This document shows positions 25,034 to 47,259 of a stretch of 64,000 nt of DNA, piece after piece. Position numbers and translations under genes: made by a program. The notes below the pieces were generated by a model. It had not been told where the DNA came from, made no database searches, and worked only from the letters and a program-made list of their open reading frames with translations. Source of the DNA: an uncultured Candidatus Saccharibacteria bacterium (GTDB lineage Bacteria > Patescibacteriota > Minisyncoccia > Phycocordibacterales > UBA2100); assembly GCA_964594735.1 (NCBI GenBank), contig CAZQMS010000005.1:19150-83149 (forward strand), in the 5' to 3' direction. Within the stretch, counting starts at the first letter, position 1. Each line of letters opens with the position of its first letter.

Positions 25034-26131
25034 TTATCTATTCAGTGGCATCACGAGGTACGTGAAGCTGCTATCGGAGACGCCGCGGATAACGAGCGGT
25101 CTACCGGGGCCGGAGAATCCGAGCACGACGGAATCTGATTGTATTGTCGCCAGACAATCTGATATGTACCCGATATGGAAGTTGATATCGAGATCGTCCC
25201 CCGCGAGCGCCGCATCAATACTGTCGGACATCTCACCCACATCTGCACTACGTGCCGTGGCAGTGAAAATCTTCTTCTTTGGGTAGATGTGTAGGCCGAC
25301 GTGCATCTCCTGACCAGAGAAGACGCGTGCCTTGCGGAGCATTTCGGCAAGATCATTCTTAAGTACCGTCGCTTCCGAGGTGAACTTCTTGGGGATAATT
25401 TCTTTGTAGTTAGGAAATGTCGCATCGACGACACGAGATACGAACCTTGTTCCACTCCCAATGACCACCAATTGCGCATCATCCGTCGAAAGCGCGACAG
25501 TGTCGTCACTGAGCCTCTCGAGCACATGGACGAGCTCTAGGGCGTGTTTAAGCGGAATGAGAAGCTCTCCCGATGTGCGCGCACCTGTCTCCGAAACCAT
25601 TTTCTCCGCAAGTCGGAATGAATCAGTGGCAACGCACACCATCGAACCATCCTGCATTGAGATGTAGATACTTCCGAGATCGGGTCGAATCATCGACGGC
25701 GAAGCTGCGTATGCGACCGATTGAATACCGTGGATAAGTCTCTCACGCGCGAGTGTAATCTCTTTTTTCCCACTCTCGCTCGAGAGCACTGGAAATTCTT
25801 CATGGGGGACAGCTTTGATAAGGGTCTTTGTCCCTCTTGATTCGATGAGGAGGTTACCATCTTCAGTCGAAAGCGTCACTTTGTCGCCTCCAATAGCGCG
25901 GATTGTTTGGGAGAGGATTGCTGCGGATACTGCTACCGTACCTTTTTCTTCAACATCACCTGCGACAGATATTTCTATCCCCGCCTCAAGATTGGTCGCT
26001 TTTAAATTTATATCCTTTGCTCCCTCGATGAGTACACACGAAAGAATAGGAAGTGACTCTTTTTTTCCTGTAATGCGTTCTGCCATGAGAATCGCATTAA
26101 GAATCTTTTCTTTTGTTGTTGTGAGTTTCAT
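25034..26131 (-). CDS. dnaN: DNA polymerase III beta sliding clamp
   Basis: 365 aa in three-domain clamp layout, located downstream of dnaA. Confidence 0.85.
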   Translation of the reverse strand: MKLTTTKEKILNAILMAERITGKKESLPILSCVLIEGAKDINLKATNLEAGIEISVAGDVEEKGTVAVSAAILSQTIRAIGGDKVTLSTEDGNLLIESRGTKTLIKAVPHEEFPVLSSESGKKEITLARERLIHGIQSVAYAASPSMIRPDLGSIYISMQDGSMVCVATDSFRLAEKMVSETGARTSGELLIPLKHALELVHVLERLSDDTVALSTDDAQLVVIGSGTRFVSRVVDATFPNYKEIIPKKFTSEATVLKNDLAEMLRKARVFSGQEMHVGLHIYPKKKIFTATARSADVGEMSDSIDAALAGDDLDINFHIGYISDCLATIQSDSVVLGFSGPGRPLVIRGVSDSSFTYLVMPLNR

Positions 26132-26442: not shown

Positions 26443-27795
26443 CTACGCGTGGATGAGGGTGCGGATGTGGTCGAGTTCTTGCTCAAGTGAGTTGTTGCTC
26501 TTTATCTCCTCTTTGATTTTTTCGCACGAGTGGATGACTGTGGTGTGGTCGCGGCCGCCGAGCTTCTCCCCTATTGAAGGGTATGAGACGCTAAATTCTT
26601 CACGAAGGACGTACATGATGATCTGTCTCGGCTTGACCACCTCCTTTTTGCGCGTCTTTTCGTAGATGCTTTTCTCGGGGACTTCGTAATACTGCGCGAT
26701 GCGGCGCACCACCTCATCTATAGAGACGCCACGATTCGGCTTCACATTGTGTTTGATGAGGGCGCGTACGTCGGCGTGCGATATCGCTTTGCCCTTGAGC
26801 TGCGATTTGCACACAATCATATTGAGAACACCTTCAAGTTCGCGGATGTTGCCGCGCACGTTCTCAGCGATGTACTGGATGATGTCTTCCGGTATGGAAA
26901 AACCGTGCTGCTCTATTTTTGCCTTGATGATGGCGATGCGGCTCTCTACATCGGGCTCCGGTATCTCCGCGATGACACCGGCGGCGAAGCGGCCTTTGAG
27001 GCGCTCCTCAAAGCCCGGGAGGAGCGATGGGTGTTTATCTGACGAGAAGACAATTTGTTTGTTGTTGTCGTGAAGTGCGTTGAAGAGGTGGAAGAGTTCT
27101 TCCTGGGTCTTCTCTGTGTTTGCGATGAACTGGATGTCGTCCATGATGAGGACATCGTACTGACGGTACTGGTCTTTGAAGTTGTTGGCGCGTCCCGCAC
27201 GCACGGCGTTGATGTAATCAATCGCGAAGCGCTCCGATGTGACGTAGAGCACTTTTTTGTTCGCGTGCTGTTTCTTGAAATGATTGCCAACCGCTTGGAT
27301 GAGGTGGGTCTTGCCGTGACCTGTCGAGCCGTAGATGAAAAGCGGATTGTACGTGAGGCCCGGGCGATCTATCACCGCCTTTGCTGCCGCGTGGGCAAGC
27401 TGATTGAAGGGGCCGACGACAAATGTCTCAAATGTGTAGCGTGGGTTGAGGTTGTCGCGCTTGTCTATATAGAGAGACTGGAGGTCGAACGACGCGTTCT
27501 CCTGGGGCTTTTCAGCGCGCGGCGCCCTGCGCTCGGCACTCGGGGCACTGCGATGAACGACGTACTCGACGGTGCGAATAGTGTTGTCGAGGCTACGGAG
27601 TGCCTTGAGGATGAGCTTGTGGTGTTTCTCGAGCAGCCACTCTTTCACAATCTTCGACGGCACGGCCACCTGCACTGTCCCCGACTCGCGGTTTGCGATG
27701 TCAGTATTGCGAAACCAAGTGCGGAAGGAGGCTTGTGATGTTCCTAATTCTATTTGGACCAATGCGTTCTGCCATAGTTCTCGATTGGTCATCAT
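26443..27795 (-). CDS. dnaA: chromosomal replication initiator DnaA
   Basis: GSTGHGKTHL Walker A, AAA+ sensor motifs and a C-terminal DNA-binding domain. The track start is TTG at 27804; the ATG at 27795 is likelier. Confidence 0.9.
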   Translation of the reverse strand: MMTNRELWQNALVQIELGTSQASFRTWFRNTDIANRESGTVQVAVPSKIVKEWLLEKHHKLILKALRSLDNTIRTVEYVVHRSAPSAERRAPRAEKPQENASFDLQSLYIDKRDNLNPRYTFETFVVGPFNQLAHAAAKAVIDRPGLTYNPLFIYGSTGHGKTHLIQAVGNHFKKQHANKKVLYVTSERFAIDYINAVRAGRANNFKDQYRQYDVLIMDDIQFIANTEKTQEELFHLFNALHDNNKQIVFSSDKHPSLLPGFEERLKGRFAAGVIAEIPEPDVESRIAIIKAKIEQHGFSIPEDIIQYIAENVRGNIRELEGVLNMIVCKSQLKGKAISHADVRALIKHNVKPNRGVSIDEVVRRIAQYYEVPEKSIYEKTRKKEVVKPRQIIMYVLREEFSVSYPSIGEKLGGRDHTTVIHSCEKIKEEIKSNNSLEQELDHIRTLIHA

Positions 27796-27962
27796 AGATA
27801 TCAACAGCGAATGAAGCTCACGTATTATACGCGTGCAGCTTTCGCTGGGAAGCGCCGCGGGAGTGTTACGACATGTTCACAACCTGTGTACAACCTGTTG
27901 ATTACTTTTTCGCCCACCATCGCTGTTGCCATGTGCCAGATTTTGCCGTATAGTCCGAAGTC

Positions 27963-29899: not shown

Positions 29900-30460
29900 C
29901 TACCATCCGCTTCCACCACCCCCGCTAGAGCCGGCCCCACTTGAACCGGTGCCGGTACTGCCGGGCGCTGTTGCTGGCGCAGCAGGTAGAGAGTTTGCGG
30001 GTGCTTGATTGGTCGCAGCTGGGCGTGTGGGCGTCACGATTTGCACCTTGTTGGCGTTTCGGAACACATTTAGATCCAGTAAATTCGGATTAATCTGGCG
30101 CAGAATGAGCCATATTGAAAGCAGCAGCAAAAGACCGAGAATCACATCGCCGATGACCTGCTTCGCGTGTGACTTCTGGTGGAATGCATCGGTGGTCATG
30201 TACAGGTAGCCTGCAAAGGCGAGCCGGAGTACGCCAAGAATTGCGCCCACCGCAATCATCGCAACGAACACCTTGTTGAAAAAGTCCGCAAGAGACCCAT
30301 TCGTTCCATACAGATCTCCGAGGCGAGTGCCACCGGGAGCGGGGGCGAGCGGTACGAAAGTCTGGGCGGTTGCCATGCTCGCGCTAATGACGAATAACGT
30401 TCCCGCTATTGTAATCGCGAGCAGGAGGTGGGGTATGTACTCGGTTCGTCTCATAATCAT
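29900..30460 (-). CDS. small membrane protein, candidate VirB2/TrbC-like pilin
   Basis: Signal peptide followed by two hydrophobic helices and a Gly/Ser-rich tail; last gene of the secretion cluster. The start is trimmed to the ATG at 30460. Confidence 0.35.
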   Translation of the reverse strand: MIMRRTEYIPHLLLAITIAGTLFVISASMATAQTFVPLAPAPGGTRLGDLYGTNGSLADFFNKVFVAMIAVGAILGVLRLAFAGYLYMTTDAFHQKSHAKQVIGDVILGLLLLLSIWLILRQINPNLLDLNVFRNANKVQIVTPTRPAATNQAPANSLPAAPATAPGSTGTGSSGAGSSGGGGSGW

Positions 30461-31698
30461 CGGTCTAGCGTGAGCATCCACAGTGTTTTGTCTGTCTTGT
30501 TGCTGAAGGCGATGTGCGTGCCGGCGCTGTTGATGCGCGGCTCTTCCACATCGAGCGGCGTGCCGAAGTCTGGCGTGAAAATTTGCTCGGCGGTGTTGGC
30601 AGAGACGTCGATGCGCCACCATGCATCCGCAGTGTGCACCGAGCCATCGTACCAGCCGCGTACAAACGCACCCGTCGGCCGTGTCTGGGGTACTGCACAG
30701 TACAGAATGAGTCGCGAGTCGGGTGCCCACACACATTTTTCCACTACCGTGCGCACGGGTAGCGCTATGTCCGCACTCGCAGCGCTTACGCGCGCAAAGA
30801 GCGCGAGCGAGCCACCAGAGGAGCTGCTGAAAGCTACGGCGCTCGAGTTGGTGCGCGGGAGGAACATGAGGCCAGGGATATTCCCTACGACGCGTTCGAG
30901 TGCGCCGGATGGGAGCACGCGGAACGCGAATCCTGCGACGTCATCCGACGCCTTCTGTACAACGTACCGCGTACCGTCTGGGAGCACGAGTGCTCGCCAG
31001 TCGGAGAGCGCCGACGTGAGGATGCGCTTTTGGCCTGCTGCCTTCCAGTCGGCAGTAATACCGGCGGATCCATCAGACTCACGCACGATGAAGAATATCT
31101 CTCCAGCATCGTCGCGGACTGCAACCGATACCACACCAGTTGGGAGGAATACACCCTCGAGCTTGTTCGGAGTGTCCCCCGCTGCCGGAGACGTGCTCGT
31201 CCCTATACGCGCAGCGAAAGCCGTACTTCCCCCCGCGTCGTCGAGTGCGCGCAGCACGACAGAGCCATCAGAGGCAAAATGTGCCTCGAGAACCTTCGGA
31301 ATGAGTGTATTCGTGAGGCGCTCTATCTTGGTCTCGTTGGGGTCAGCGACGAGGATGTTGCCGGAGGCGCGTTCCGCGAAGTAGAGGCGCGGACTCGAGC
31401 TCGCGAACCCGAGACCAGCAACGGGTGTGCGAGTTATCTGCCAGAGCTGCGGAGCCTCGGAAGACGCCGATGATTCATTCTGAACGATAGACCCGACGAT
31501 GCCACTGACAAGGTTTGAAATTCCGCTCCCGATACCGGCGCCAAAAGTCTCGCTCGCGCCAAATCCACGTGCCGCGTCTTGCGACTCCGTCGTCGAGATT
31601 TGTTGATTGACGAAGATGTACCACCCCGCGAGGCCGCCAAGCGCCGTGACGACGATGCCAGCGACTACGAAGCGGATGAGGGTCATGTTCATTTTCAT
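30457..31698 (-). CDS. membrane-anchored protein with a probable beta-propeller ectodomain
   Basis: N-terminal TM; stop overlaps the next start by 4 nt. Confidence 0.4.
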   Translation of the reverse strand: MKMNMTLIRFVVAGIVVTALGGLAGWYIFVNQQISTTESQDAARGFGASETFGAGIGSGISNLVSGIVGSIVQNESSASSEAPQLWQITRTPVAGLGFASSSPRLYFAERASGNILVADPNETKIERLTNTLIPKVLEAHFASDGSVVLRALDDAGGSTAFAARIGTSTSPAAGDTPNKLEGVFLPTGVVSVAVRDDAGEIFFIVRESDGSAGITADWKAAGQKRILTSALSDWRALVLPDGTRYVVQKASDDVAGFAFRVLPSGALERVVGNIPGLMFLPRTNSSAVAFSSSSGGSLALFARVSAASADIALPVRTVVEKCVWAPDSRLILYCAVPQTRPTGAFVRGWYDGSVHTADAWWRIDVSANTAEQIFTPDFGTPLDVEEPRINSAGTHIAFSNKTDKTLWMLTLDR

Positions 31699-31704
31699 AC
31701 TGAT

Positions 31705-32742
31705 TTATTGCTGTGGTGCGAAAGGATTTGTTCCCTCCACGCCGCCGGCGCGGGAGAATGTGACCTGCCACGCCGCATTGGTGCCGAAAAAGAAGTTGCT
31801 TATATGTGTAACCTCCAGCTCGACGGTAGCGACCCCTGTCGACCCCTGTGAATTGATGGTGATTTGAGACGGTAATTCCTTGTGACTTGCGATGTCCTGC
31901 TGATTTACGCGCCAGGCGTACGAAAGACGCGAGTCATTTTCTGATGTTGCAGGGGCAAAATATGGTATCGCAAGAAACGTCAGCTCCGTCTCCGGCGTAA
32001 ACGCGCTCGCGCCAAACGCCCTGTGGTAGAGGGGGCCGAAGAGCGGGTGATTCTCGTAGAGCTGGATGTGTGTGTCGGGACTCGGTATACGTGTGCTCGC
32101 GCGCGCAGATATGGCACCGTCAGGAGTGCGCGCTTCTACGGAGAATGTGTCGTCGCTGAAGAGCGTCCTGCCGTCGACTACGAGTGTCGAGCGCCCCTTA
32201 CCTGAGAACGAGCCGAGCACGATGTTTCCTTTGCGCCAGGTGTAGATGAGGTCCTTTTCTGCGATTCGCGTCCCATTCTGTACAAACGTGGGGTATGCGA
32301 CAAATGTGATGTTTGCACCCGGAGATGGTAGCGTGCGTCCCCCATAAAAGGCGGGAGTAAACCCGTCGGCTTCCCACAGAAGGTCGAGGGATGCGGGGGT
32401 AATCGTGAGAAAGGCGAGCGCATCCTCATCGCCCGAAATGACCGATGCAGAGACATCGACCGACTCGCCCGCACTTCCGACCTCTATAGAAACGCTCGTG
32501 ACCCCTTCGCCCTCGGTGAGGAGCTCTCCATCGACGCGCCATGAGATAAGACTTTGAGCGAGATCATAGATGGGGCTTTGCAGTGTGAGTCGCACCGTGC
32601 TGTTCGGTACAGGCTGCGCGGGGCTCATCGCGATTGTTACTGCACTTGATGCTCCCGGAATACCCGACTGCGCGCTGACCATCATTGGTACGACGACAGG
32701 CATCGCGAAAATGAACATCAATACTACCGAGACGCGCTTCAT
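31705..32742 (-). CDS. secreted protein, hypothetical
   Basis: Signal peptide MKRVSVVLMFIFAMPVVVPMMVSAQS. Confidence 0.4.
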   Translation of the reverse strand: MKRVSVVLMFIFAMPVVVPMMVSAQSGIPGASSAVTIAMSPAQPVPNSTVRLTLQSPIYDLAQSLISWRVDGELLTEGEGVTSVSIEVGSAGESVDVSASVISGDEDALAFLTITPASLDLLWEADGFTPAFYGGRTLPSPGANITFVAYPTFVQNGTRIAEKDLIYTWRKGNIVLGSFSGKGRSTLVVDGRTLFSDDTFSVEARTPDGAISARASTRIPSPDTHIQLYENHPLFGPLYHRAFGASAFTPETELTFLAIPYFAPATSENDSRLSYAWRVNQQDIASHKELPSQITINSQGSTGVATVELEVTHISNFFFGTNAAWQVTFSRAGGVEGTNPFAPQQ

Positions 32743-34718
32743 ACTTCCTTGAGATCAGAGCTGCTGAGTGATTTCCCGACAGGTGCCGTGTCGGCGCCCG
32801 GTACAGCGGGTGCAGGTATGCTTGCGGCGGCTGGCGGCGGTGCCGTCGGCGACACGGGGCGGATTGATGCAGCTGCGGCTGCGCCCGCGCTCGCTGGTGT
32901 ATCGACCGCATCGAGCTCCTGCTTTGCTTTCTTGATTGCCAGAATCTGCGACGGGTCCGATGTGATGATTTGGTCTTCGGTGTACGAAGCGATGACCTTG
33001 ATAGCGACGTGCTTGAGGCCGGCGAAGAATATACCCTCCCCCACGTCGGACTCGAGCAAGAGGTACTTCTCTTCATCCGAGAGTTTGAACGTCTGCTGCA
33101 CGAGGTCGACCGATGTTGGTGACTGACGCAAGAGGAGTTGAATGGACGAGTTGGTAATCATCGGAATGCCGTAGGGCGAATTGAGGAAGTCGGAGACGTC
33201 CTGCGTGATGGTGGAAATGCCCAGGTAGTATTTTCGACCGCGTTTTGCAATCGAGAAGAGGAAGGATGCGGTGTCCTCGCTGCGCATCATCCACCACGCC
33301 TCGTCGATGACGAGCAGTCGCTTGCGGAGCTCTTTGCGCACCGTATTCCAGATGTGGTGCGTGATGATGTACATAGCGACCGGCTTGAGGTCGTCTTCCA
33401 TGTCGCGCACCGAGAACACCACAAGTTTTTTATTCATGTCGACGTTGGTCGGCCTATTCATAAAGCCGGACCAGGTGCCCTTGGTGTACTTGGAGAGGCG
33501 CTGCACGAGGCTCTCGGAGCCCTCCATGCCCGAGAGGACGAGCTCGAAGTCGGAAAGAAGCGGCGGCTCAACCGCGGCGAAGTTCGCCTCTGGCGTAATG
33601 TCCTTGAGTGCGTATGTCTCCGTGATTGCCTTGTCGATGATGGCGTCCTCCTCCGGCGTCAGGCCGCCGAGCATGATGCGGAAAAGCCCCACGAGGGTGA
33701 TGATGTTGTTGCGCAGCACGTCCGACGGATTTTCATCTTCGCGCGGAATTGCGAGGTCGAAGGGGTTGATGTGGTGTTCGGAGGAAAGTGAAATGTTGAA
33801 GTAGCGGCCGCCGACCGTCTCCGCGAGGTACTCGTATTCCCTCTCAGGGTCGATGACGATGACTTCTGTATCGAACATGAGCGAACGCAGAATCTCAAGC
33901 TTCGTTGTGTACGATTTGCCTGCGCCTGACTTTGCGAATGTGACGCTGTTGTAGTTTTCGAGTGAGAAACGGTCAAACAATATGAGCGATGAATTGTGCC
34001 TGTTGATGCCGTAGAGAATGCCTCTATCTGATGTGAGGTCGAATGAGATGAATGGAAATATCGACGAGAGCGGCGCGGAATTGAGCTTGGTGTGCACATC
34101 GAGCTCATCGGTCGCGAGCGGCAGGACCGAGCGGAATCCCTGCTCCTGCTGGAACAGTGCCGGTCGTATGTACACAAGCCGGGACTCCAAGATGGAGCGC
34201 ACCTCGCTCTCTACCTTGTCGATTTCTTCGCGGGTCGAGCCGTAGATGGTGAGGTACAGACCAACATCGAAGATGCGCTCTTGCGCCTGCTGGAGACTGT
34301 CGCGGAGCTGTTCAAGGTCGGCGTACGCAGTGTCGAGCATGGGGTCGCGGACCATGCCCTTCGCTTCACGCGTCGAAATCTGGCTCTGCACCTCGGCTAC
34401 TTTCTTTTGGAATTTGCGGAGCATCTCGTTGGTATCCATGGGGTGGATGAAAATCGAGATGTCGAGCACCTTGTCCATGTTGATGATAGGCGCGAACCAG
34501 CCCGTCGTGAGAAAGCGCGGGTACGAAATGACAAAGAACGTGCGCGCAATCTTCTCGCCGAGGTCGAGTTCGCGCGAATTGACCTTGAGTGCATGCGGTG
34601 CGATGACGTCCTGCAGGTCGAGGACGCCGCTTTGGTAAATCTCACGCGGAAGCACCGGGAGGATATCCGGAGACTCATCCTTTTTCTTGCCAAATGGAAG
34701 CAGGTCAGTGAGTGCCAT
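32739..34718 (-). CDS. VirB4/TraC/CagE-family type IV secretion ATPase
   Basis: Walker A FAKSGAGKSYTT and Walker B LLVIDEAWWMM; 659 aa. Confidence 0.85.
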   Translation of the reverse strand: MALTDLLPFGKKKDESPDILPVLPREIYQSGVLDLQDVIAPHALKVNSRELDLGEKIARTFFVISYPRFLTTGWFAPIINMDKVLDISIFIHPMDTNEMLRKFQKKVAEVQSQISTREAKGMVRDPMLDTAYADLEQLRDSLQQAQERIFDVGLYLTIYGSTREEIDKVESEVRSILESRLVYIRPALFQQEQGFRSVLPLATDELDVHTKLNSAPLSSIFPFISFDLTSDRGILYGINRHNSSLILFDRFSLENYNSVTFAKSGAGKSYTTKLEILRSLMFDTEVIVIDPEREYEYLAETVGGRYFNISLSSEHHINPFDLAIPREDENPSDVLRNNIITLVGLFRIMLGGLTPEEDAIIDKAITETYALKDITPEANFAAVEPPLLSDFELVLSGMEGSESLVQRLSKYTKGTWSGFMNRPTNVDMNKKLVVFSVRDMEDDLKPVAMYIITHHIWNTVRKELRKRLLVIDEAWWMMRSEDTASFLFSIAKRGRKYYLGISTITQDVSDFLNSPYGIPMITNSSIQLLLRQSPTSVDLVQQTFKLSDEEKYLLLESDVGEGIFFAGLKHVAIKVIASYTEDQIITSDPSQILAIKKAKQELDAVDTPASAGAAAAASIRPVSPTAPPPAAASIPAPAVPGADTAPVGKSLSSSDLKEV

Positions 34719-34801
34719 AGGAATAGTTTACAGGTGACAGTCTACAGTTAACAGTAAAGTATGCATGCGCGTATTGGTTGTTCCTGTCATCTGTAAACTG
34801 T

Positions 34802-35464
34802 TCACTGTGAACTGGGTACTGGCATGGGTTTCCCCTCCTCGCCCGGGTTGAACATCTTGTAGAGAAGCTCTATCGCCTCCTCGGTGCCGAGCTGGACGGT
34901 GCGCACGCCCGTGCGGACCAATCCCTGCTGGACGATGGAAATGCGCTGCTCGAGTTGTGACACCTGTTCTTCAAATGTCCTGTTCTCTGCGGCGGGGTCG
35001 GATTTACCCTTGCCAAATGGCAGGTAGGACGCGGGTCCGGATTTCTTGGTAATAACTGCCGGGTCGTACGGCACGACGACGAAGAAATTTTTCGTCATTA
35101 TGTTGGCCGCCTCGGTGAAACTCTTGATGAACTCGATGTACTCACGAATCTGAATGCGCATGAGGTCGTCGAGTTGCTGCTTGTACTGTGCTTCAAGTGT
35201 CGCGACATACGGGCGGATGTCGAGCATGCGCGACTGGACGAATATCTGTACTGAAAAGTCGAGTGAATTGAGGAAATTTTGGAATTGAACGATGAATGCG
35301 GTCTGCTCGTCTTCGCTCTTGAGCGCGAAATTGATGGACGAGGCGAGGAGCACTGCGCGCAGACCCCCGCTCTTGAGCGACACGACGCCGTCGCGTACCT
35401 CTTGAATCGGCACAAAATCCTGTGTCGATCGAGAGATGGTGCGCTTGTTGGTGGTTTCAGGCAT
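34802..35464 (-). CDS. hypothetical protein of the secretion cluster
   Basis: 220 aa, soluble, no motif. Confidence 0.4.
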   Translation of the reverse strand: MPETTNKRTISRSTQDFVPIQEVRDGVVSLKSGGLRAVLLASSINFALKSEDEQTAFIVQFQNFLNSLDFSVQIFVQSRMLDIRPYVATLEAQYKQQLDDLMRIQIREYIEFIKSFTEAANIMTKNFFVVVPYDPAVITKKSGPASYLPFGKGKSDPAAENRTFEEQVSQLEQRISIVQQGLVRTGVRTVQLGTEEAIELLYKMFNPGEEGKPMPVPSSQ

Positions 35465-35467
35465 GGT

Positions 35468-35983
35468 CTATTGGCGCGGGGCGCTTCTGCGCAGCTGGGT
35501 GACAATGTCTTCGGGTACGCGCAGGCCCCGTACGGGGTCTGAGTCGCTTCTGTCGCGCTCGTCGGTCGTGCCCGCAGCGATGCGTTCGTTGATGTCGAGG
35601 CTCCAGGCAAGCTCGTGGAGCTTGCTGTCGGAGAGTTTGGGCACGTAGACGCTTGCGCTCCCCCGACTCGGCTCTGCCGCCTTTTTAACCTGTGGCTTTT
35701 TCGAGCGCTCGTTGTTCCAGAGGTACAGCTTGGGGTGGAGCATGTAGTAGAAGCTGTTTTCGAGCGCGAGGAGGAACGGGCGGCCGTTGACCTGCATGAA
35801 GGCAAGCGCCGCGGCAAGCCCGAGGACGCCGATGATGAGTGGTGCAGCAGCAAAAAGCGGGAGGATGCGCCACACGACGTATGCAAGACCGAGTCCTCCG
35901 GCGATGAAGACGAATTGCTTAAAGGTGAGAGGCCCCACAATCTTGTCCTCTACCTCGATGAATTGAGGTACTTGGAACTGCAT
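35468..35983 (-). CDS. PrgI-family (VirB3-like) small membrane protein
   Basis: MQFQVPQFIEVEDKIVGPLTFKQFVFIAGGLGLAYVVW is the characteristic PrgI-type N-terminus (from memory), with two TM helices. Confidence 0.55.
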   Translation of the reverse strand: MQFQVPQFIEVEDKIVGPLTFKQFVFIAGGLGLAYVVWRILPLFAAAPLIIGVLGLAAALAFMQVNGRPFLLALENSFYYMLHPKLYLWNNERSKKPQVKKAAEPSRGSASVYVPKLSDSKLHELAWSLDINERIAAGTTDERDRSDSDPVRGLRVPEDIVTQLRRSAPRQ

Positions 35984-36043
35984 GACTCAATTATTATAAC
36001 AGCCCGCACGATGTGTGCGGGCTGTTTAAACGCATATCACTAC

Positions 36044-36628
36044 TTAGATGAGTTGCTCGCGGTACGGGTCGCCCTCTATTGCTTTGCGTTCGTGACTCGC
36101 TACTTGTGGTGCGTACGTAGCGGGGAGCTGTGCGCGCTCAACTTTCTGAGTAGGCGGTGCTGGTGGCGGTGTCGCGGGTGCTATCGGCGCTGCTGCAGGT
36201 GCCGCAGGAGCCTGCACGGGCGCCGTAGGAGCTTCTGAACTACCAAGAACCTGCGTGCGCATCTGCTCTACCCCCGTTTCCTCCGTAGCCTCAGCGTCGG
36301 GGTGTTCCAACTGTCTTTCTAGTTCCTGACGAATGGGCTCGAAGACGAGAGCCGATATCTCCGCAGCGAGGGCTGTTGCCTCTTCTGGAGAGAGTCCGAT
36401 AGACTCTGCTATGTTTTCAGGCAAATTCTCCGAATGGTGAACCCCCAGCAAGGTGAGCTGGACTTCATTTTCTAGTGCCTCCCATTGGTCCAAGTGTAGG
36501 TTGCGTTTTTTGGCCAGTTCTCGCATGTGTGACTGTACGTCGGCAGAAAGAATCGCATCTCGCACGACTTTCGGGAGACTTTCGAAGCGCTCCTGTATCA
36601 GCTGCTTGAATTCGGTGTTCTCGTCCAT
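36044..36628 (-). CDS. hypothetical protein with a Pro/Ala-rich C-terminus
   Basis: ORF only. Confidence 0.35.
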   Translation of the reverse strand: MDENTEFKQLIQERFESLPKVVRDAILSADVQSHMRELAKKRNLHLDQWEALENEVQLTLLGVHHSENLPENIAESIGLSPEEATALAAEISALVFEPIRQELERQLEHPDAEATEETGVEQMRTQVLGSSEAPTAPVQAPAAPAAAPIAPATPPPAPPTQKVERAQLPATYAPQVASHERKAIEGDPYREQLI

Positions 36629-36631
36629 AAT

Positions 36632-39052
36632 TTAGTGATGTGCGGCTCCGCCTCCATGGTCGTCGTGTCCGCCGCCGTGGCTCTCTTGTTTAGGTGTTGT
36701 CGCTGGCTTGGCTTGCGTCTGTGACGAAGGTGCGTGTTCATCGTGGCCATGACCAGCGCCACTCTTCTCCTTTAAGTACTCAGCAATCTTTTTGGCTTCT
36801 TTCTTCTCATGATGTTCCCCGACTTCTTTCTTTGCAAGCTGTGCAAGACGGTCTGACTTCTCGTCGTTCCACTTCGTCACACGCGCAAGGGTATTCGTAA
36901 AGCGTGAATTCGCGAGCGTTGCCGCGAGGTCTGCCTCGCTCTTGAATTCCTTGAGATCGCCTTTTTTGATTGCGCTTGTTTTTGCCTCCGTTTCGATGTT
37001 CTCAATGACCTTGCTGGCCTCTTTGATTCGTTTATCGGCTGCTTCAATACGGCTTTTCTGCTCATTAAGAGTTTTCTCTGCTTCAGCCCGATTAAATCGG
37101 GCGTTGTTCGCGCCCTCTGCGTCGTTAGCTTTTTCAGCGCGTGCGATGTCGAGCTCGGCCTTGACTTTCTTTTCCTGCGCCACTTTATGTTCATTTTCTG
37201 CAGAATCCTTTTCGTTCTTATGTGCGTCAGCCGCCTGAGTTGCCGCGGCGTGCCGTTCATTCAGACTCGGGTTTTTGGCTATTTCCGCCTTGATAGCATC
37301 GACTTCGATAGCCGCCTTTTTCTTGGCGTCAACATGCAGTGCGTCTGCGTCCTCGGCATACTTCTTAGCCCGTTCTTTCAGAGAGCCTTCGAAGCCCTTG
37401 ATTTCTTTCCCTGCAAGTTTTTTTGCATCAATACCAGCCATGCCGCCCACCATACCTCCGAGAGGCGTGCGCATAACGTTCATGTCTGACTTTGCAACAC
37501 CCTTGAATCGGTTAGAGCCGAATTTATAGAGGGATTGTGTCAGACTGCCGTCTGTGGCCTTTGCGGCACGCATTTTCAAAGCGTCACTTGCAGCGAGGCT
37601 GGCGCGTCCGATTGTTTGTCTTCCGGCAAACGCCGCGACGCGGGCGCCGGCAGCGATGCCAAGCGCCGGTATCATTGCTGCCATACTGAAGCCGCTGATG
37701 CCGGAGGAGAACGAGCTCGCGAGCTTAAAGGATGCGAAGAGCATTCCGAGTAGGATGACGTAGTTGAAAAGCGCTCCGACACCGGCATTGCCCTCGTTGG
37801 AAGTCATGAGGCCGCCCAGCGTACTGCCCTGTGTGCTCATCGCTTGCGCCAGACTGAGTGTAACCCATAGCAGTATCATCAAGAGGGGCCCGAAAACAGC
37901 GACATTGATGAGTGATTTCCACCAGGTAGACCATCCGTACTGACTCTCCGCTGCTTTGGGTATCAGGTACGTCGCAAATGCGAGTGATGATGTAATCATC
38001 AGAAATATGAGTAGCACCGCGCGACTGATGATGAGGAGGCACCCGTAGAGCATCACTATTGCGACGCCGAGTAGAAACGTTGCGCTCAATACTCCGTGCA
38101 GAAGGGCGAGCATGCCATCTTTCTTGTCCTCTGCGTTTTTTCGAATGTTGGTGTACACGTCTCCGATGCTCGTGACACCCATCGTGCGTATGAACTGACC
38201 CGCGATGCCATCCTGTTGCTGCGTTGTCGCGACCGATGTTCCGGCGCCCACGAGCGTATTGATTGGTTTTGGAACGACCGAACCACCTGCCGCCACGTAA
38301 AACTGGTACGAGACGAAGTTGGACCCGTCGATGATGAGTTTTGTAAAGAGAAGGCTAAAGTTCATGAGAACCGCGATGACGAGCACGCGGGCTATCATTT
38401 TCTTCTGCCCGAAACTTTCGAGACCGAGAATAATGGAGATCGCGATAAAGACGAATAAGCCGATGATGAGAATGTTGGAAAGGTCGCGGAAGACTGTCCA
38501 TGCGGTGTCTATTGCACCCCGCACGCTCGTCGTGAGGAAGCCGTTGGTCTGATCACCAAAGGCGACGATGGTGTAGTACACGAGCCAATTGAAGAGAAGC
38601 CCGACGACTTCGAGTAGCTTTGCGGACAGGGTGACGAGTATGGTCGCGATGAGCGCACCGAGTGTTCGCCCGAAACACACTATTGGACTCTTGAAGTAGT
38701 CTGTCCAGCTTTCGCAACTCGTAGCGCCTTTGTTGGCCGAGTAATTCTCGGCGTGAGTCCCGGCACCTGTTGGCACTGGGTCTATTCTCTGGGTCTCACT
38801 GGGTTCGCACTCCTGTCCTTCGGAGTCTACGTAGATATATCGCGGCGACTCGGGTGACGAGTTGCTGTCATAAACTGCGCTGGTCGCTCCCACGCACGCC
38901 GCAGCAGATGCGGTTCGTGGTAAAACCGATGCGGTTATCAGAAGGGCCGGAATGATTGCGGCAACGATGCTTGCAGCTGAAAGAGTTCTAGCAAATGTAC
39001 CTGTAGGTTTAATGCGCATACTATTGTCTCCATTCGTTCTTCCAGACATCAA
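36632..39052 (-). CDS. VirB6/TrbL-like polytopic membrane protein with a long Lys/Glu/Ala-rich coiled-coil C-terminus and a His-rich tail
   Basis: Signal or TM followed by 6 or more TM helices, then about 250 aa of a charged helical region ending HGGGHDDHGGGAAHH. Confidence 0.5.
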   Translation of the reverse strand: MMSGRTNGDNSMRIKPTGTFARTLSAASIVAAIIPALLITASVLPRTASAAACVGATSAVYDSNSSPESPRYIYVDSEGQECEPSETQRIDPVPTGAGTHAENYSANKGATSCESWTDYFKSPIVCFGRTLGALIATILVTLSAKLLEVVGLLFNWLVYYTIVAFGDQTNGFLTTSVRGAIDTAWTVFRDLSNILIIGLFVFIAISIILGLESFGQKKMIARVLVIAVLMNFSLLFTKLIIDGSNFVSYQFYVAAGGSVVPKPINTLVGAGTSVATTQQQDGIAGQFIRTMGVTSIGDVYTNIRKNAEDKKDGMLALLHGVLSATFLLGVAIVMLYGCLLIISRAVLLIFLMITSSLAFATYLIPKAAESQYGWSTWWKSLINVAVFGPLLMILLWVTLSLAQAMSTQGSTLGGLMTSNEGNAGVGALFNYVILLGMLFASFKLASSFSSGISGFSMAAMIPALGIAAGARVAAFAGRQTIGRASLAASDALKMRAAKATDGSLTQSLYKFGSNRFKGVAKSDMNVMRTPLGGMVGGMAGIDAKKLAGKEIKGFEGSLKERAKKYAEDADALHVDAKKKAAIEVDAIKAEIAKNPSLNERHAAATQAADAHKNEKDSAENEHKVAQEKKVKAELDIARAEKANDAEGANNARFNRAEAEKTLNEQKSRIEAADKRIKEASKVIENIETEAKTSAIKKGDLKEFKSEADLAATLANSRFTNTLARVTKWNDEKSDRLAQLAKKEVGEHHEKKEAKKIAEYLKEKSGAGHGHDEHAPSSQTQAKPATTPKQESHGGGHDDHGGGAAHH

Positions 39053-40760
39053 GTGTCGCTTGATTGTTCACATTGCACCAGCCGTTTCCCTCTTTCCATG
39101 CCTGCTCCGTATTTGTGCGGAACGTCTCTTGAGTGGCTTGTACGTCGTCTTTGACTTTCTGATCTGCCTGCAATTGCGACTCGTTGTTGCGGATGAGACC
39201 GCGGGCTACCTGGTCGTCGAGTTGCTGGAGCGCGACACGCTGGGCTTCTAGAGATGTGGTGTTTGTGATACCTGCGATGAGTCTGTCGACGCGCTCCACC
39301 GCTTGGTTGGCGCGCAAGACGGCCGCTTCGGTCGAACTCGCCTGAGAACCGAGTGAACTGTTTCTCACGGCTTGAGTAGAAAATGCGGTGGAGGTCGCAA
39401 TTTTCAATTTACCCCCTGTGCCGCAGTTGCCTCCCTCTGTGCATGCTGTTGACTCCGTGCAAGTCTTGTCAGCAGCGAGGGGACCAGCGCAAACCTTTTG
39501 AATGATTGCTTCCCAGCATCCGGCTTCTTTGCTGCGCAGGTCGGTTATCGTCGCCGCAAGAATGGATAGAATGGTTTCTGAAAGCTGTTTGTAGCCGAGT
39601 TCGACGCGTTTTGCGGCGGTGAGGATCTGGAGAGCTGCGTTGGTCGCTGCGTCGCGTAGCCCCGCGTTTGCCTCGCGTACCACCTGGTCCAGATATGAAG
39701 GCTGACTCCCTGTCTGCTGCATGAGTCCTTGGATACCTCGGCTGTCACCGACGACCTGCGCAATCATGCCGGAGAAAAGCGAACCTACCATCTGGTCGAT
39801 GTCGTTGGAATTCTCAAGTTGCCTGTAGCCGCTCTGCAGAAGCTGTGTGATGTTGTCACAGACGATAGAGCCCGGGCTTACCGTGATGCGGTTACCGTAC
39901 TCATCAATGCGCTCCACCGGATGACAGCCCTGCCCCATCTGTACCTGCGTAAGCAAATTATTGGCGGAACTGTTCGCAACGCTGTTGAGTCGTTCGCTCG
40001 CAAGCGTGTACGCGAGTATGGGATCACAGCCTGGTGTCCCGATTGCGCTGAGCGCAGACCATACCGATTTGTCTGGATTCCCCCGGTGGACGGTTGTAAT
40101 ATCGCCAGCGTAGCCACAGTCCAGTATGGAATTCGGCTGGTTGCGGGCGGTAAGATAACTCTGGACAGTTGCACGCCCGACAGGGCCGCGTAGTTCCGGT
40201 TTCAGCGCATTGAAGAAACCGCCATTGACGAGCACTCCGACGACACGATCGCGCTCCACTTGCATCTCCGCTTCAATATCCTGTGGAAAGAATGGATTTC
40301 CGTCCCTCCCTGTGAGGAATGTGGCGAGCCCCTGCTTTGCAAGACCTGCTGTTGCCGCCTCGCGCTGTCTGTTGACCACGCCGCGGAGCACGCACTCCTT
40401 GTATACGAGATAGCCAGTGTTGAGCGTGACAGCCGCGTCGTTGACGGGCACGTACACACCGCCGACAGCAGCGAGCGCGCCGACGCTCATCGAGTGCGAG
40501 CCTTGGAGCGAGCAGCCAAAGACTCCCTGTCGTTTGAATGCGTACGTATCGGAGAAACTAATAGTCGCGTTGATTGCATTCGGGTCTTGCGAGCCCGAAC
40601 CATCGGTAGAAGGGTCGGTGGTCGTACACGTGCCGATGACGATGCCGTTCTCGTTTACTTCCTGTCCGTTGACACACGCTGCAGCGGCGTACTGCGGCAG
40701 CGCAAAAAACATGGCAACGATACCTAGTGCAAGGATGAGTATGTCGCGGCGCAACGTCAT
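39021..40760 (-). CDS. secreted Cys-containing protein, hypothetical
   Basis: Signal peptide ILILALGIVAMFFALPQYAAA; overlaps the downstream gene by 32 nt. Confidence 0.45.
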   Translation of the reverse strand: MTLRRDILILALGIVAMFFALPQYAAAACVNGQEVNENGIVIGTCTTTDPSTDGSGSQDPNAINATISFSDTYAFKRQGVFGCSLQGSHSMSVGALAAVGGVYVPVNDAAVTLNTGYLVYKECVLRGVVNRQREAATAGLAKQGLATFLTGRDGNPFFPQDIEAEMQVERDRVVGVLVNGGFFNALKPELRGPVGRATVQSYLTARNQPNSILDCGYAGDITTVHRGNPDKSVWSALSAIGTPGCDPILAYTLASERLNSVANSSANNLLTQVQMGQGCHPVERIDEYGNRITVSPGSIVCDNITQLLQSGYRQLENSNDIDQMVGSLFSGMIAQVVGDSRGIQGLMQQTGSQPSYLDQVVREANAGLRDAATNAALQILTAAKRVELGYKQLSETILSILAATITDLRSKEAGCWEAIIQKVCAGPLAADKTCTESTACTEGGNCGTGGKLKIATSTAFSTQAVRNSSLGSQASSTEAAVLRANQAVERVDRLIAGITNTTSLEAQRVALQQLDDQVARGLIRNNESQLQADQKVKDDVQATQETFRTNTEQAWKEGNGWCNVNNQATLDVWKNEWRQ

Positions 40761-41668
40761 GGTGTTTTTTGGCCGTAGTAATTGCCGAGTGCATCGAAAG
40801 CGTAGAACATCTTTTGCTCAGCGGTGTTGTAACTGCGCAGGAGGGCGACGGTCGCGAATTCGTCGAGAGTATTCCCTGCCATCGCGTCGAGCGTTGCGTC
40901 GAATAGCGAAAGTGCGTTGAGCACATCGAGGTGGTAGTTGATTGCGTCGCGAGGGGCGACGACTGCCGCCGCGTTCGTGAGCGCTTTGTCGTAGTTGGCA
41001 GCGGCCTCTGCGAGTGTCTTGAGGTGCGCCTCATCGCTCGTCTCGACGTACCGAGCGAAAATATCGAGCTCCGACTCTGTGTTCTCAAGGAGTGGTGCGA
41101 GCGCATCACGCAAATCGCTTCGGTACTCAAGCATCCGATTGTAGGAAATATCGGTGTCTGTCCGCACATCCGCGGAGGTATAGGTTTTGTATGAGATGAC
41201 GGCTTTCACGTTGCGCGCAATACTCTCCGCGACCGCGTCGCCCGCCGCCTCTGAGTACGTACCGCTTTCGACGAGTCCCGCATACTGGCCAACGAGCTGT
41301 GCGACCACGATAGGACCAATCATGGCGATAGGGTCTTCGCCGGATGCATTACTCGTCTCGGATGTAGTCGCGAGACCGAGCAGTACGAGTTCTTGCTGCC
41401 ATGACGCATCGGTGGCAGGAATAGCGGCGCCAGATACAGTGTCGACTTCTGCGACAGCAGGCTGCACTATGTCGGAGACGAGAAGGCGTAGCTGGAAGAG
41501 AAGTGCACCGAGGAGCACCACGACGGCGAGTGCCGCCGTAGCTGTGATTCGTGAGCGGAAAAGAAAATGGAATACACGCACAATATAAGTATACCCCGTT
41601 AGATCGTCGCACCTCTGTGTTTTACCCAGAAAACTAAGGACATTTTGCCTGCATGTGCTTGCACGCAT
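40757..41668 (-). CDS. membrane-anchored protein (the true start is probably near 41585, after the motif)
   Basis: Single TM; distantly similar to the next gene (41750-42625). The 5' part of the track ORF is overlapped by a motif copy. Confidence 0.4.
   Translation of the reverse strand: MRASTCRQNVLSFLGKTQRCDDLTGYTYIVRVFHFLFRSRITATAALAVVVLLGALLFQLRLLVSDIVQPAVAEVDTVSGAAIPATDASWQQELVLLGLATTSETSNASGEDPIAMIGPIVVAQLVGQYAGLVESGTYSEAAGDAVAESIARNVKAVISYKTYTSADVRTDTDISYNRMLEYRSDLRDALAPLLENTESELDIFARYVETSDEAHLKTLAEAAANYDKALTNAAAVVAPRDAINYHLDVLNALSLFDATLDAMAGNTLDEFATVALLRSYNTAEQKMFYAFDALGNYYGQKTP
41589..41604 (-). promoter_or_regulatory. conserved motif ATCTAACGGGGTATAC (minus strand)
   Basis: Inverted partner of the plus-strand copy 77 nt away. 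Confidence 0.4.
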
Positions 41669-41681
41669 GCGACGCGAGGAT

Positions 41682-41697
41682 ATCTAACGGGGTATAC
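41682..41697 (+). promoter_or_regulatory. conserved motif ATCTAACGGGGTATAC (plus strand, with no plus-strand gene downstream)
   Basis: Seen directly. Confidence 0.35.
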
Positions 41698-41749
41698 CGC
41701 GCTCAAAGACGCAAAAGTGTAGATATTCCACCGAATTGCGCGGTTTTTT

Positions 41750-42625
41750 CTACAACCCTCCCCCGCCCGAGAATGTAAAGATGCTGCCCGGGTCACCGGT
41801 CGTGAATTTGACCCCGGCGAGTGCAAGTGTGGTCGCGAGATCATTGAAATGTGACACGAGTGTGTCTGCTTCGACATTGTACGCAGTTATCGCTGCAATG
41901 AATGCGTCGTCACCGTTTGCGTCTGGGACTTTTTCTAGCGCCCTGCCGACCGCGATGTAGCTCTCTGCAAGCGATTTGTGCGGTGAAGCGATGGCACTGG
42001 GCACTTCCTCCATCCCCAGAAGGCTCTCGCCCGCGGTGCGCAGTCCCATTGCGACAAGCTTGACCGACTGCTTCTTCTGCGGATCCTGCCTGTCCTCGGC
42101 CTGGTCGCGCAGCGCGATGGGCGCGTTCCTGTTGGAATCCTCGTAGGTCTGTATGTATGAGGCAGCGTCGTTGCCGTAGGTGAAGAGTGCCTGCTGTTCG
42201 GGTGTGCGAGAAACGGCCGGTGTGTTTGTGGCGATGAGTCCGCGTGGGATAAATGCATACGCGAGGTCGATGTCGGTGGATGCGGTCGTGCTCTTGGTGC
42301 CGGATGGCTCGGCAAGTGAGCTGAGGAGCGACTGGAAGTCGTAGTCTTCAGCAGTCTCGGAATCGGCGGTCGCACCTTGAGTCGGCGGTATATAGATGGG
42401 CGCTCCCCCGCTTCCGCCGCCGGTATTTTGCGTGGCCTGCTGAATGTTTTGTGGCGTGTATGACGTGGGATTCAAAAGCGGCGCACCCGTGCCACCCCAC
42501 ACCGAGAGTGTCCCCGGCGAGACGCTCGCGCGATTCTCCACGACAATGACACCGATGACTATGAGGAGCCCGATAGCGGCGCTCGCGGCGGCATACGGAT
42601 GGCTCGCGAACCACAACATGCGCAC
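41750..42625 (-). CDS. membrane-anchored protein, first gene of the secretion cluster
   Basis: Single TM. The likely ATG is at 42619, with TATTAT 6 nt upstream. Confidence 0.4.
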   Translation of the reverse strand: MRMLWFASHPYAAASAAIGLLIVIGVIVVENRASVSPGTLSVWGGTGAPLLNPTSYTPQNIQQATQNTGGGSGGAPIYIPPTQGATADSETAEDYDFQSLLSSLAEPSGTKSTTASTDIDLAYAFIPRGLIATNTPAVSRTPEQQALFTYGNDAASYIQTYEDSNRNAPIALRDQAEDRQDPQKKQSVKLVAMGLRTAGESLLGMEEVPSAIASPHKSLAESYIAVGRALEKVPDANGDDAFIAAITAYNVEADTLVSHFNDLATTLALAGVKFTTGDPGSIFTFSGGGGL

Positions 42626-42666
42626 ATAATAGCACTCGCTGGGTAGCGCAGTGATACAATGCGCTC

Positions 42667-42987
42667 ATGCTCGCGCGTTCGGTCGCCGCACTCGTGCTCT
42701 CGATTGCACTACTCGCTCCGTCGATTGCCGCGGCGTTTCCCTTTGGTGGACAGGCGTTCATCGTGCGACCCTGCTACAACAACGCCATCTACATCGGGCT
42801 CGGTCCCCCGCGCGGCGGTCCCTTTGTCTGGACGCCGGGCACGCGCACGTACATGTTTGGCCCACCTACGCACGCAGGACAGTGGTTTCTCGGCCTCGCC
42901 GGGATTCCCTACTACTGCATCGTCTCGATTCAACCAGTCATCGTTTGGTCAGGTACCTACATCAACATGATGGGGAGTTCGCGCTAA
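42667..42987 (+). CDS. small secreted protein
   Basis: Signal peptide LVLSIALLAPSIAAA; TGATACAAT lies 6 nt upstream of the ATG. Confidence 0.45.
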   Translation: MLARSVAALVLSIALLAPSIAAAFPFGGQAFIVRPCYNNAIYIGLGPPRGGPFVWTPGTRTYMFGPPTHAGQWFLGLAGIPYYCIVSIQPVIVWSGTYINMMGSSR

Positions 42988-46320: not shown

Positions 46321-47259
46321 TTGAGTGCGATTCTCGCTTCAATAAAAGGCAGCTTCGCGAGTGCGGGTACCGTACCGCAAAGCGGCAATCTGCAGACCAT
46401 GGGCTTCCTTAAGCCCGCTATGAATATCGATCCGGCGCCGGCACGCGGAGGTGGTGACATACAGATTATTGATGATTCCGCACTGCTTCCCGAGGAGGGT
46501 CCAGCGGGCACCATCGCAGACATTGAGAAGCCAAAGAATTCGACCATCAGCACGTATACGGTGCGCGAGGGAGACACGCTCTCCGGTATCGCACTTATGT
46601 TCGACGTCTCACCCAACACCATCAAGTGGGCAAATGACATTCCGACCAGTGGGACCATACGCGTAGGTCAGCAGCTCACCATTCTCCCAGTCACGGGTGT
46701 ACGGTACACGGTGAAAAAGGGCGACACGCTTGCGGCGATTGCAAAGAAGTACAGTGCAGATGCCACCGATGTCGCCAACTACAACGGTATCGAAGGCGCA
46801 CTCGCCGTGGGCGACGTCATCATAATCCCCAATGGCGAAATGCGTATCGAGACGCCGGCACGCGCTGTCGCGAAAGCTACGGGGCCCGTGACGTACACGA
46901 CGGGTACGCAGGTGGGTTACTACGCTTCACCCATCGCACGGTACGTAAAAACACAGGGCATACACGGGTACAACGGCATCGATCTCGGTGCGGCTGCAGG
47001 CACGCCCGTCATGGCTTCTGCCGCGGGCGAAGTTATCGTCGCCAAGGGCAGCGGGTACAACGGTGGATACGGCCTCTACGTCGTTATCCAGCACGGCAAC
47101 GGCTCACAGACACTCTACTCGCACCTCTCGCGTCTTGGCACGAGCGCTGGTGAATTCGTCGAGCAAGGTCAGGTCATCGGCTATGTCGGCTCGACTGGCC
47201 GCTCCACCGGTCCGCACCTCCACTTTGAGATACGCAACGGCATCCGAAATCCTTTATAA
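46321..47259 (+). CDS. LysM-domain (x2) M23 family peptidoglycan peptidase. The N-terminus probably extends upstream
   Basis: Two LysM repeats (TYTVREGDTLSGIA, RYTVKKGDTLAAIA) and M23 motifs (HGYNGIDLGA...GYVGSTGRSTGPHLHFE). The track start is TTG. Confidence 0.8.
   Translation: MSAILASIKGSFASAGTVPQSGNLQTMGFLKPAMNIDPAPARGGGDIQIIDDSALLPEEGPAGTIADIEKPKNSTISTYTVREGDTLSGIALMFDVSPNTIKWANDIPTSGTIRVGQQLTILPVTGVRYTVKKGDTLAAIAKKYSADATDVANYNGIEGALAVGDVIIIPNGEMRIETPARAVAKATGPVTYTTGTQVGYYASPIARYVKTQGIHGYNGIDLGAAAGTPVMASAAGEVIVAKGSGYNGGYGLYVVIQHGNGSQTLYSHLSRLGTSAGEFVEQGQVIGYVGSTGRSTGPHLHFEIRNGIRNPL

Follow-up and report, generated by a model that had tools for sequence, protein, structure and literature searches.

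A probable core-chromosomal type IV secretion system of the Patescibacteria clade, encoded next to dnaA

We analysed a stretch of 64,000 nucleotides (the window) of contig CAZQMS010000005.1 from an uncultured member of the Patescibacteriota (assembly GCA_964594735.1) and, within it, a cluster of eleven genes on the minus strand (29900-42625; g1 to g11 in the direction of transcription). This cluster very probably encodes a vertically inherited chromosomal type IV secretion system (T4SS) of the 'Patescibacteria clade', akin to the monoderm systems with mating-pair formation of the FATA type (MPF-FATA), in which VirB4 would power a VirB2 pilus or conduit that moves macromolecules at the site of host contact and does not serve conjugation. 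As judged by homology, it encodes a membrane translocon of VirB4, VirB3 and a likely VirB6 together with a VirB2-type pilin; the setting is that of a monoderm, on the core chromosome and not conjugative. The kind of system has already been published, and our result is a correct identification, not one new in kind. Among 3,035 Patescibacteria genomes, 2,417 were found to have a VirB4; these proteins form a monophyletic clade nested in MPF-FATA, whose phylogeny tracks taxonomy (Quiñonero-Coronel et al. 2025, Microb Genom, PMC12102498). g8, the VirB4 of the window, is a putative member of this clade, as indicated indirectly by its 75-95% identity to VirB4 of Kaiserbacteria and other Paceibacteria and by its best curated model, which is of the FATA type. 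Much of bacterial diversity falls to the Patescibacteria, which are host-dependent, and the T4SS is among the few machines known to be essential to this lifestyle.

The signature motor of the T4SS is g8 (32739-34718; 659 residues), a VirB4-family ATPase. It matches P-loop_TraG in Pfam with an E-value (E) of 5.7e-24, and also AAA_10, DUF87 and TraC_F_IV; it exceeds the curated cut-off of the NCBIfam model conju_CD1110 (365.8 bits, cut-off 325) and matches the C-terminal domain of VirB4 in the PDB (4ag5, E 1.3e-40). The Walker A and B motifs that an earlier note, made from the letters of this DNA, had claimed for the ATPase are indeed there (AKSGAGKS and LLVIDE). The same note described neither g5 nor g7 and missed that g7 (34802-35464; 220 residues, soluble) is a TrsD-like protein, the detached N-terminal domain of VirB4. 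g7 matches VirB4_plasma (E 1.7e-10), TrsD (2.1e-6), conju_CD1110 (2.4e-6) and TIGR00929 in NCBIfam, with scores below the cut-offs of the full-length models, as expected of a fragment. Because g7 and g8 cover complementary stretches of three full-length models (conju_CD1110, 2-118 and 182-733; VirB4_plasma, 97-233 and 293-893; TIGR00929, 5-179 and 265-724, each time g7 before g8), the two together are a split VirB4, like TrsD and TrsE of pGO1. A comparison of both family profiles with hhalign gave no similarity above 20% probability, which fits two different parts of VirB4 and not duplicates. Two genes upstream of g8 lies g6 (35468-35983; 171 residues), a two-helix membrane protein of the PrgI/VirB3 type with a C-terminal extension. 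It scores above the gathering score of PF12666 PrgI (E 1.1e-9, 39.2 bits, gathering score 27), as its earlier naming as PrgI/VirB3-like would lead one to expect, and has a hydrophobic hairpin at residues 25-61.

The conservation of these parts was followed in 80 loci from Paceibacteria-type metagenome-assembled genomes, which came from a scan of one genome per GTDB species and were chosen by VirB4 similarity; presence and identity were determined by tblastn with the proteins of the window. g8 has thousands of close relatives, and those that are labelled come from Candidatus Kaiserbacteria, Paceibacterota or Patescibacteria; the genome of the window was taken to be that of a Candidatus Kaiserbacteria (class Paceibacteria). 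It is 75-95% identical across the 80 loci, with a median of 78% that is biased upward by the way the loci were selected, although the gap to DnaA (55.5%) is still large. The other medians are 62.5% for g7, 49% for g6, 40% for DnaN, 38% for g11, 35% for g5, 31% for g9 and 27% each for g10 and g4. Since VirB4 and g7 are more conserved than DnaA and DnaN in the same loci, the VirB4 motor appears to be under strong purifying selection. g7 and g9 were each found in 78 loci, g6 in 77 and g10 in 70. At the other end of the scale, g1 was detected in 16 loci (27-45% identity), and g1 to g3 are detectable in about the 20 closest genomes only, at 24-53% identity where VirB4 stands at around 90%. The pattern is that of a core machine passed on vertically, in which the cytoplasmic motor is ultraconserved and the exposed parts (g1-g3) diverge fast. 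For the Paceibacteria T4SS, this gives a cleaner parts list, in which constraint is strongest on the split VirB4, more conserved than DnaA, and g1-g3 evolve fast.

The position of the cluster is equally constant. Throughout the 80 loci, the gene order is uvrD-rsmA-(small open reading frame)-g1...g11-jag-yidC-dnaA-dnaN, and only the order of g10 and g11 varies; the synteny comparison with other VirB4 loci of the candidate phyla radiation thus found the block conserved in 80 species genomes of Paceibacteria. In the window, one flank carries dnaN (25034-26131), dnaA (26443-27804), rnpA, yidC and jag, and the other rsmA, uvrD, a LysM-M23 peptidase, ComM, PNPase and a PIF1 helicase. With two tRNAs, a Mur ligase, PolA, RuvB and a class A penicillin-binding protein in addition, the window is ordinary chromosome. 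The cluster could still be the mating-pair-formation module of an integrated conjugative element whose relaxase and coupling protein lie outside the window; after all, g8 passes the CD1110 model of a conjugative-transposon ATPase, and VirD4 homologues are found elsewhere in many Patescibacteria genomes (PMC12102498). Against this stand the block between the same housekeeping genes in 80 species, a GC content in the cluster (0.54-0.58) equal to that of the flanks (0.51-0.60), and domain scans of the cluster and of 20 larger open reading frames elsewhere in the 64-kb window, in which neither a relaxase nor a VirD4/TcpA-type coupling protein, a VirB11 or an integrase turned up. Relaxases are also nearly absent from Patescibacteria at large, with 109 in 3,035 genomes, and the taxonomic signal in the VirB4 phylogeny points the same way (PMC12102498). 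On core-genome synteny and on the lack of relaxase, coupling protein and integrase in these scans, we reject the conjugative element as highly improbable; the earlier note, which had considered conjugation unlikely for lack of VirD4, relaxase and VirB11, was right in this.

The channel and the pilin are recognised largely through their relatives. g4 (36632-39049) is laid out as an extended VirB6-like polytopic membrane protein, with an N-terminal Cys-containing loop, a helical membrane domain, some eight to nine hydrophobic segments and a charged, coiled-coil-like tail of 325 residues (35% K/R/E/D) that ends in a His-rich C terminus. PF04610 TrbL/VirB6 is matched by 2 of 32 orthologues (best E 7.7e-5). 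An AlphaFold2 model of the membrane domain, residues 100-500 (predicted local distance difference test score, pLDDT, 81.6) has three chains of R388 TrwI/VirB6 as its top matches in a Foldseek search of the PDB (prob 1.0, 1.0 and 0.97); a sequence-profile search of the PDB returned coiled-coil proteins only, matched through the tail. Resting on these two orthologues and on a weak but specific fold match, g4 is likely, though not proven, to be VirB6. Of the earlier description of a VirB6/TrbL-like polytopic protein, the segments, the charged tail and the His-rich end can be kept; the profile match comes from orthologues and not from the protein itself. g11 (29900-30460; 186 residues), earlier described as a terminal two-helix pilin-like protein, does have a signal peptide and two hydrophobic helices, and in the alignment an INP motif is conserved and the C-terminal tail varies. 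PF18895 T4SS_pilin is matched by 29 of 32 orthologues (best E 1.1e-10) and TrbC/VirB2 by five; g11 also weakly matches a pilin-like family of mycoplasma integrative and conjugative elements (ICE) in NCBIfam, and a sequence-profile search of the PDB gave nothing relevant. By this family membership g11 is classed as a VirB2-type T4SS pilin. It is the sole pilin gene in the window and present in a single copy. In most Paceibacteria outside the Kaiserbacteria-like group (loci L021 and L026-L080), the pilin gene lies between g9 and g10 and not after g10; some loci (e.g. L031, L032 and L054) have 2-3 kb extra between g9 and g10, which may hold more pilin genes.

Several points weigh against a T4SS that transports macromolecules, and the selection bias in the VirB4 identities is one of them. 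The g4 protein of the window itself matches nothing in Pfam or NCBIfam, VirB6/TrbL included, and its fold match to TrwI/VirB6 is weak (E 0.04-0.12; template-modelling score 0.41-0.47 on target length). g11 itself stays under the gathering score of PF18895 (E 8.3e-5; 23 bits, gathering score 26.6). Profile searches with hidden Markov models and against the PDB found no VirB8-like subunit (PrgL/TraM/TcpC, NTF2-like) among the cluster proteins, g1, g2, g9 and g10 having been compared by sequence only, and Pfam and NCBIfam gave no hydrolase domain in g1-g11 that could be a VirB1-like peptidoglycan hydrolase. VirD4 homologues lie far from virB4 in most Patescibacteria genomes (PMC12102498), and a coupling protein or relaxase could lie outside the 64-kb window. 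Finally, transport and its direction are something we infer from the genes alone, and the part given below to the tail of g5 is speculation.

With these reservations, a mechanism can be outlined. The split VirB4 (g7 and the motor g8), the PrgI/VirB3 anchor g6 and the extended VirB6 channel g4 would form a translocon in the cytoplasmic membrane, and g11 would be exported by Sec as VirB2-type pilin. Where the cell touches its host, VirB4 would then drive the formation of a VirB2 pilus or conduit that crosses the single membrane and the wall, and the apparatus would move macromolecules between host and epibiont, not by way of conjugation; uptake and effector export are both possible. g1/g2, g3, g9 and g10 in the envelope and g5 in the cytoplasm are lineage-specific additions, and the fast-evolving, exposed g1-g3 plausibly make host-specific contacts. 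Reviews suggest effector delivery or uptake of host molecules as the role of the T4SS (PMC11665869, PMC12857230). Tubular structures, possibly T4SS pili, were seen at a parasite-host interface in a preprint that argues for feeding on host RNA (bioRxiv 10.64898/2026.06.21.733656).

As a sub-case of the transporting T4SS, the cluster may tentatively be read as an import machine, similar to ComB or the archaeal Ced system, that takes up nucleic acids or other macromolecules of the host and feeds an organism unable to make nucleotides. The parts list is like that of ComB, with VirB2, VirB3, VirB4 and a likely VirB6 and without VirD4, VirB11 and relaxase, and conservation of the motor is as expected of a core nutritional function. 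Import has been proposed in the literature, where comEC of Southlakia epibionticum is dispensable and its T4SS essential (PMC11665869, PMC12857230), and the RNA-feeding parasite shows tubes that resemble T4SS pili (bioRxiv 10.64898/2026.06.21.733656). g8 also gives a weak, partial match to the model of the DNA-import ATPase CedB (E 5e-9), but this is restricted to the P-loop core. All these points are indirect; moreover, homologues of VirB7-B10, which ComB has, were not detected in the cluster by Pfam and NCBIfam, nor was a nuclease or nucleic-acid-binding domain. Because of the ComB-like parts, a motor conserved at the level of core metabolism and the attribution of adhesion to type IV pili, import of host material would seem somewhat more likely to us than effector export or adhesion alone.

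The second protein passed over before, g5 (36044-36628; 194 residues), is a cytoplasmic accessory protein. In the alignment, its N-terminal domain is helical and conserved, the Pro/Ala-rich linker varies in length, and an invariant motif, DPY[RH]E (DPYRE), stands 2-4 residues from the C terminus. One open reading frame with a DPYRE tail is present per locus, always between g4 and g6, and a six-frame scan found none elsewhere in the window. g5 was found in 62 of the 66 loci that have the region. The family comprises 3004 representatives at 50% clustering, and the tail is kept in 119 of the best 150; some relatives bear two to three copies of the N-terminal domain. g5 has no match in Pfam, NCBIfam or the PDB, and a literature search for 'DPYRE' returned unrelated strings only. 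It is plausible, if speculative, that the tail is a docking peptide or a secretion signal; g5 could dock with it onto the ATPase module and act as adaptor, regulator or substrate.

The last of these roles leads to a different reading, in which the T4SS exports protein effectors into or onto the host, as Bordetella Ptl and Brucella VirB do without a coupling protein, with g5 or the small secreted protein described below as substrate. Protein-exporting T4SSs that lack a coupling protein do exist (PMC12102498, PMC12857230), protein export is one of the possibilities raised by Wang et al. (PMC10633639), and g5 is laid out like many T4SS substrates, in which a disordered linker joins a folded domain to a conserved peptide at the extreme C terminus. 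We nevertheless consider an effector exporter unlikely. A protein that has one gene per locus, always between virB6 and virB3, and whose N-terminal domain is conserved looks more like a structural subunit than an effector; the small protein has a signal peptide of its own and would not need the T4SS; and Pfam and NCBIfam revealed neither a toxin nor an enzyme domain among the cluster proteins. For its single copy per locus and its fixed position, we favour a structural or adaptor role of g5. It is tempting to go further and to see in the Paceibacteria T4SS a conserved architecture that has escaped description, made up of the split VirB4 (g7 and g8), an envelope pair of Ig-like g9 and TolB-like g10, and g5, whose DPYRE peptide would bind in the ATPase module to gate the channel or to feed it. 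g5 would thereby replace the coupling protein that is lacking, and the machine would serve to import macromolecules of the host; this proposal as a whole is rather doubtful. Still, the g5 DPYRE family and the reading of VirB4 as split are useful by-products, and the DPYRE peptide is a concrete handle for work on interactions and secretion signals.

The remaining proteins are predicted envelope proteins. Both g1 (41750-42619; 289 residues) and g2 (40757-41668; 303 residues by the longest open reading frame, the true start of which may be later) have the N-terminal hydrophobic anchors of the two membrane-anchored proteins announced in the earlier note, in g1 at residues 10-28 and followed by a helical C-terminal domain. 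g1 has no match in Pfam or NCBIfam, and g2 none in these or, by sequence, in the PDB. The two had been called paralog-like. BLASTP between them is not significant, but a comparison of their family profiles with hhalign gives 96.7% probability and E 4.5e-10 over 138 C-terminal columns, and at the level of profiles they are remote paralogues. g3 (39021-40760; 579 residues) is the secreted Cys-containing protein expected there, with a signal-like N terminus and 14 Cys, of which Cys 83, 123, 215, 415 and 562 are invariant. All 407 homologues are unnamed or 'hypothetical', and the only Pfam domain among them is an FN3 that some carry in addition. Its AlphaFold2 model (pLDDT 77) consists mostly of long helices of up to 68 residues; neither fold nor profile matched the PDB significantly, Foldseek returning merely elongated helical bundles (NheA, colicin Ia, vinculin) with prob below 0.2. 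g9 (31705-32742; 345 residues) is a secreted, beta-rich protein with immunoglobulin (Ig)-like domains, as far as can be told from a signal-like N terminus, a sub-threshold match to PKD_6 and a match of its family profile to the Ig-like domain of phage T4 Hoc (E 1.5e-4). g10 (30457-31698; 413 residues) is anchored N-terminally by a hydrophobic segment (7-25), and the top 12 PDB matches of its family profile are all TolB, with marginal E-values of 0.014-0.07. It is probably a TolB-like beta-propeller; of the earlier 'secreted and beta-propeller proteins', the secreted one stands and the propeller stands on marginal matches with E of about 0.014 at best.

Next to g1, a divergent gene on the plus strand (42667-42987) encodes the small secreted protein of 106 residues that had been suspected there. 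Besides a signal peptide, this protein has two invariant Cys; it is rich in Gly and Pro and has no match in Pfam or NCBIfam. Alignment shows it to be conserved in 14 related loci (37-68% identity), always positioned between rsmA and g1, from which we take it to be a real gene, conserved beside g1 in Kaiserbacteria-like genomes and with a putative link to the apparatus.

The earlier note had favoured a surface or attachment structure. With a VirB2-type pilin and several exposed, fast-evolving proteins, the cluster could indeed be thought to build nothing but an attachment organelle, in which a pilus or other surface structure would keep the epibiont on its host without any transport, and conjugative pili are said to act mainly as attachment organelles (PMC12857230). 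This is improbable, however. Adhesion and motility of Patescibacteria are attributed to type IV pili (PMC10633639, PMC12857230), for which the window encodes a PilB-type ATPase, and a likely VirB6 channel subunit together with a strongly conserved VirB4 motor points to translocation. The ATPase in question (13527-15221, plus strand) has T2SSE and MshEN domains, is the only T2SSE-family ATPase found and is by its domains of the PilB/GspE type, a type IV pilus ATPase and not VirB11. A PKD-domain surface protein of 582 residues is encoded at 8210-9958 (minus strand); with the PilB-type ATPase it lies 15-20 kb from the T4SS, and both probably belong to a separate repertoire of type IV pili and adhesins. 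That the cluster itself could be a type IV pilus locus was considered and rejected, the PilB-like ATPase being a separate gene 15 kb off.

Returning to the cluster as a transcription unit, the eleven open reading frames on one strand are tightly packed in the manner of an operon, as had been claimed. They do not 'mostly overlap'; overlaps occur at just four of the ten junctions. Three of these are 4-nt ATGA overlaps (g2/g3, g8/g9 and g10/g11), and the fourth, between g3 and g4, measures 29-32 nt, conditional on a start of g4 at 39049 or 39052. An alternative start of g4, the ATG at 39019 with GGAG upstream, would abolish it. At the remaining six junctions, 3-83 nt lie between the genes. For g11, the ATG at 30460 is the true start, and the start of the longest open reading frame at 30736 was rejected. 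Scans of the cluster for sigma-70 promoters and intrinsic terminators gave counts not above those in shuffled sequence. The divergent start codons of g1 and of the gene for the small secreted protein are 47 nt apart (42619-42667), with a -10-like element within about 8 nt of each (minus strand, TATTAT; plus strand, TGATACAAT). Because these elements sit so close to both start codons, this suggests leaderless transcripts, or transcripts with a very short leader, for both genes.

The surroundings of the cluster deserve a few words. The cumulative GC skew has its minimum at about 24.8 kb, beside dnaN and dnaA, and for this reason the replication origin is probably located there; a scan for DnaA boxes was uninformative in this respect. 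With an origin at this site, the T4SS operon of 12.7 kb would be transcribed head-on to replication, and the rightward fork would run in the direction in which rnpA, yidC and jag are transcribed. In all loci containing these genes, the cluster is on the strand of dnaA and opposite to yidC and jag. Past rsmA and uvrD, 3.7 kb upstream of the cluster, a protein with LysM and Peptidase_M23 domains is encoded (46321-47259, plus strand). It could stand in for the missing VirB1, but may equally be an ordinary hydrolase of cell division; M23/LysM-containing VirB1-like proteins occur near virB4 in Paceibacteria (PMC12102498). Four large open reading frames, all on the minus strand (401-2881, 52908-54089, 60968-62404 and 62543-63949) and spanning 393-826 residues, have no Pfam match at E <= 0.001; that of 826 residues has an N-terminal hydrophobic segment. 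They possibly encode surface proteins.

Among known systems, the closest is the T4SS described for the Patescibacteria clade itself (PMC12102498). There, TrsD, VirB3/PrgI, VirB6 and VirB2-like pilins are associated with virB4, and the Paceibacteria cluster is close to dnaA, dnaN, rnpA, ksgA and rpmH. The window has the same parts (VirB4, a TrsD-like protein, PrgI/VirB3, a likely VirB6 and a VirB2-like pilin) at the same site, by dnaA, dnaN, rnpA and ksgA (rsmA), again with no relaxase or coupling protein nearby. Details that we did not find in the sections consulted of that article are the DPYRE-tailed g5, the complementary split of VirB4, the paralogy of g1 and g2, the pair of Ig-like g9 and TolB-like g10 and the apparent head-on orientation. 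Next comes Southlakia epibionticum (Saccharimonadia), in which the T4SS genes SEML1_0006-0019, pilins included, are essential for epibiotic growth (Wang et al. 2023, Cell, PMC10633639). Both clusters are chromosomal and close to the origin, both combine subunits like those of Gram-positive bacteria with VirB2-like pilins, and neither has a recognisable coupling protein or relaxase. Southlakia, however, has six divergent pilins and adjacent genes for a peptidase and a lysozyme, whereas in the window there is a single pilin gene and the cluster contains no hydrolase, and essentiality has been shown for the Southlakia T4SS only. With the MPF-FATA systems of monoderm bacteria (TrsD/TrsE of pGO1, PrgH/I/J of pCF10, the CD1110 family of the Clostridioides difficile conjugative transposon and the mycoplasma ICE), the cluster shares a CD1110-type VirB4, a TrsD-like split domain, PrgI, a polytopic protein that is likely of the VirB6/PrgH type and the absence of an outer-membrane core. 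Unlike these, it is without relaxase, coupling protein, VirB1-like hydrolase and PrgB-type adhesin, belongs to the core chromosome and is not mobile, and includes a pilin of the VirB2 type, a part that Gram-positive systems as a rule do without. ComB of Helicobacter pylori, finally, likewise has VirB2-like, VirB3, VirB4 and VirB6 proteins without VirD4, VirB11 and relaxase and is non-conjugative. It is a DNA-uptake system of a diderm, however, which has VirB7-B10 in addition and works together with ComEC, and the homology to the cluster that we could show is confined to the shared VirB core.

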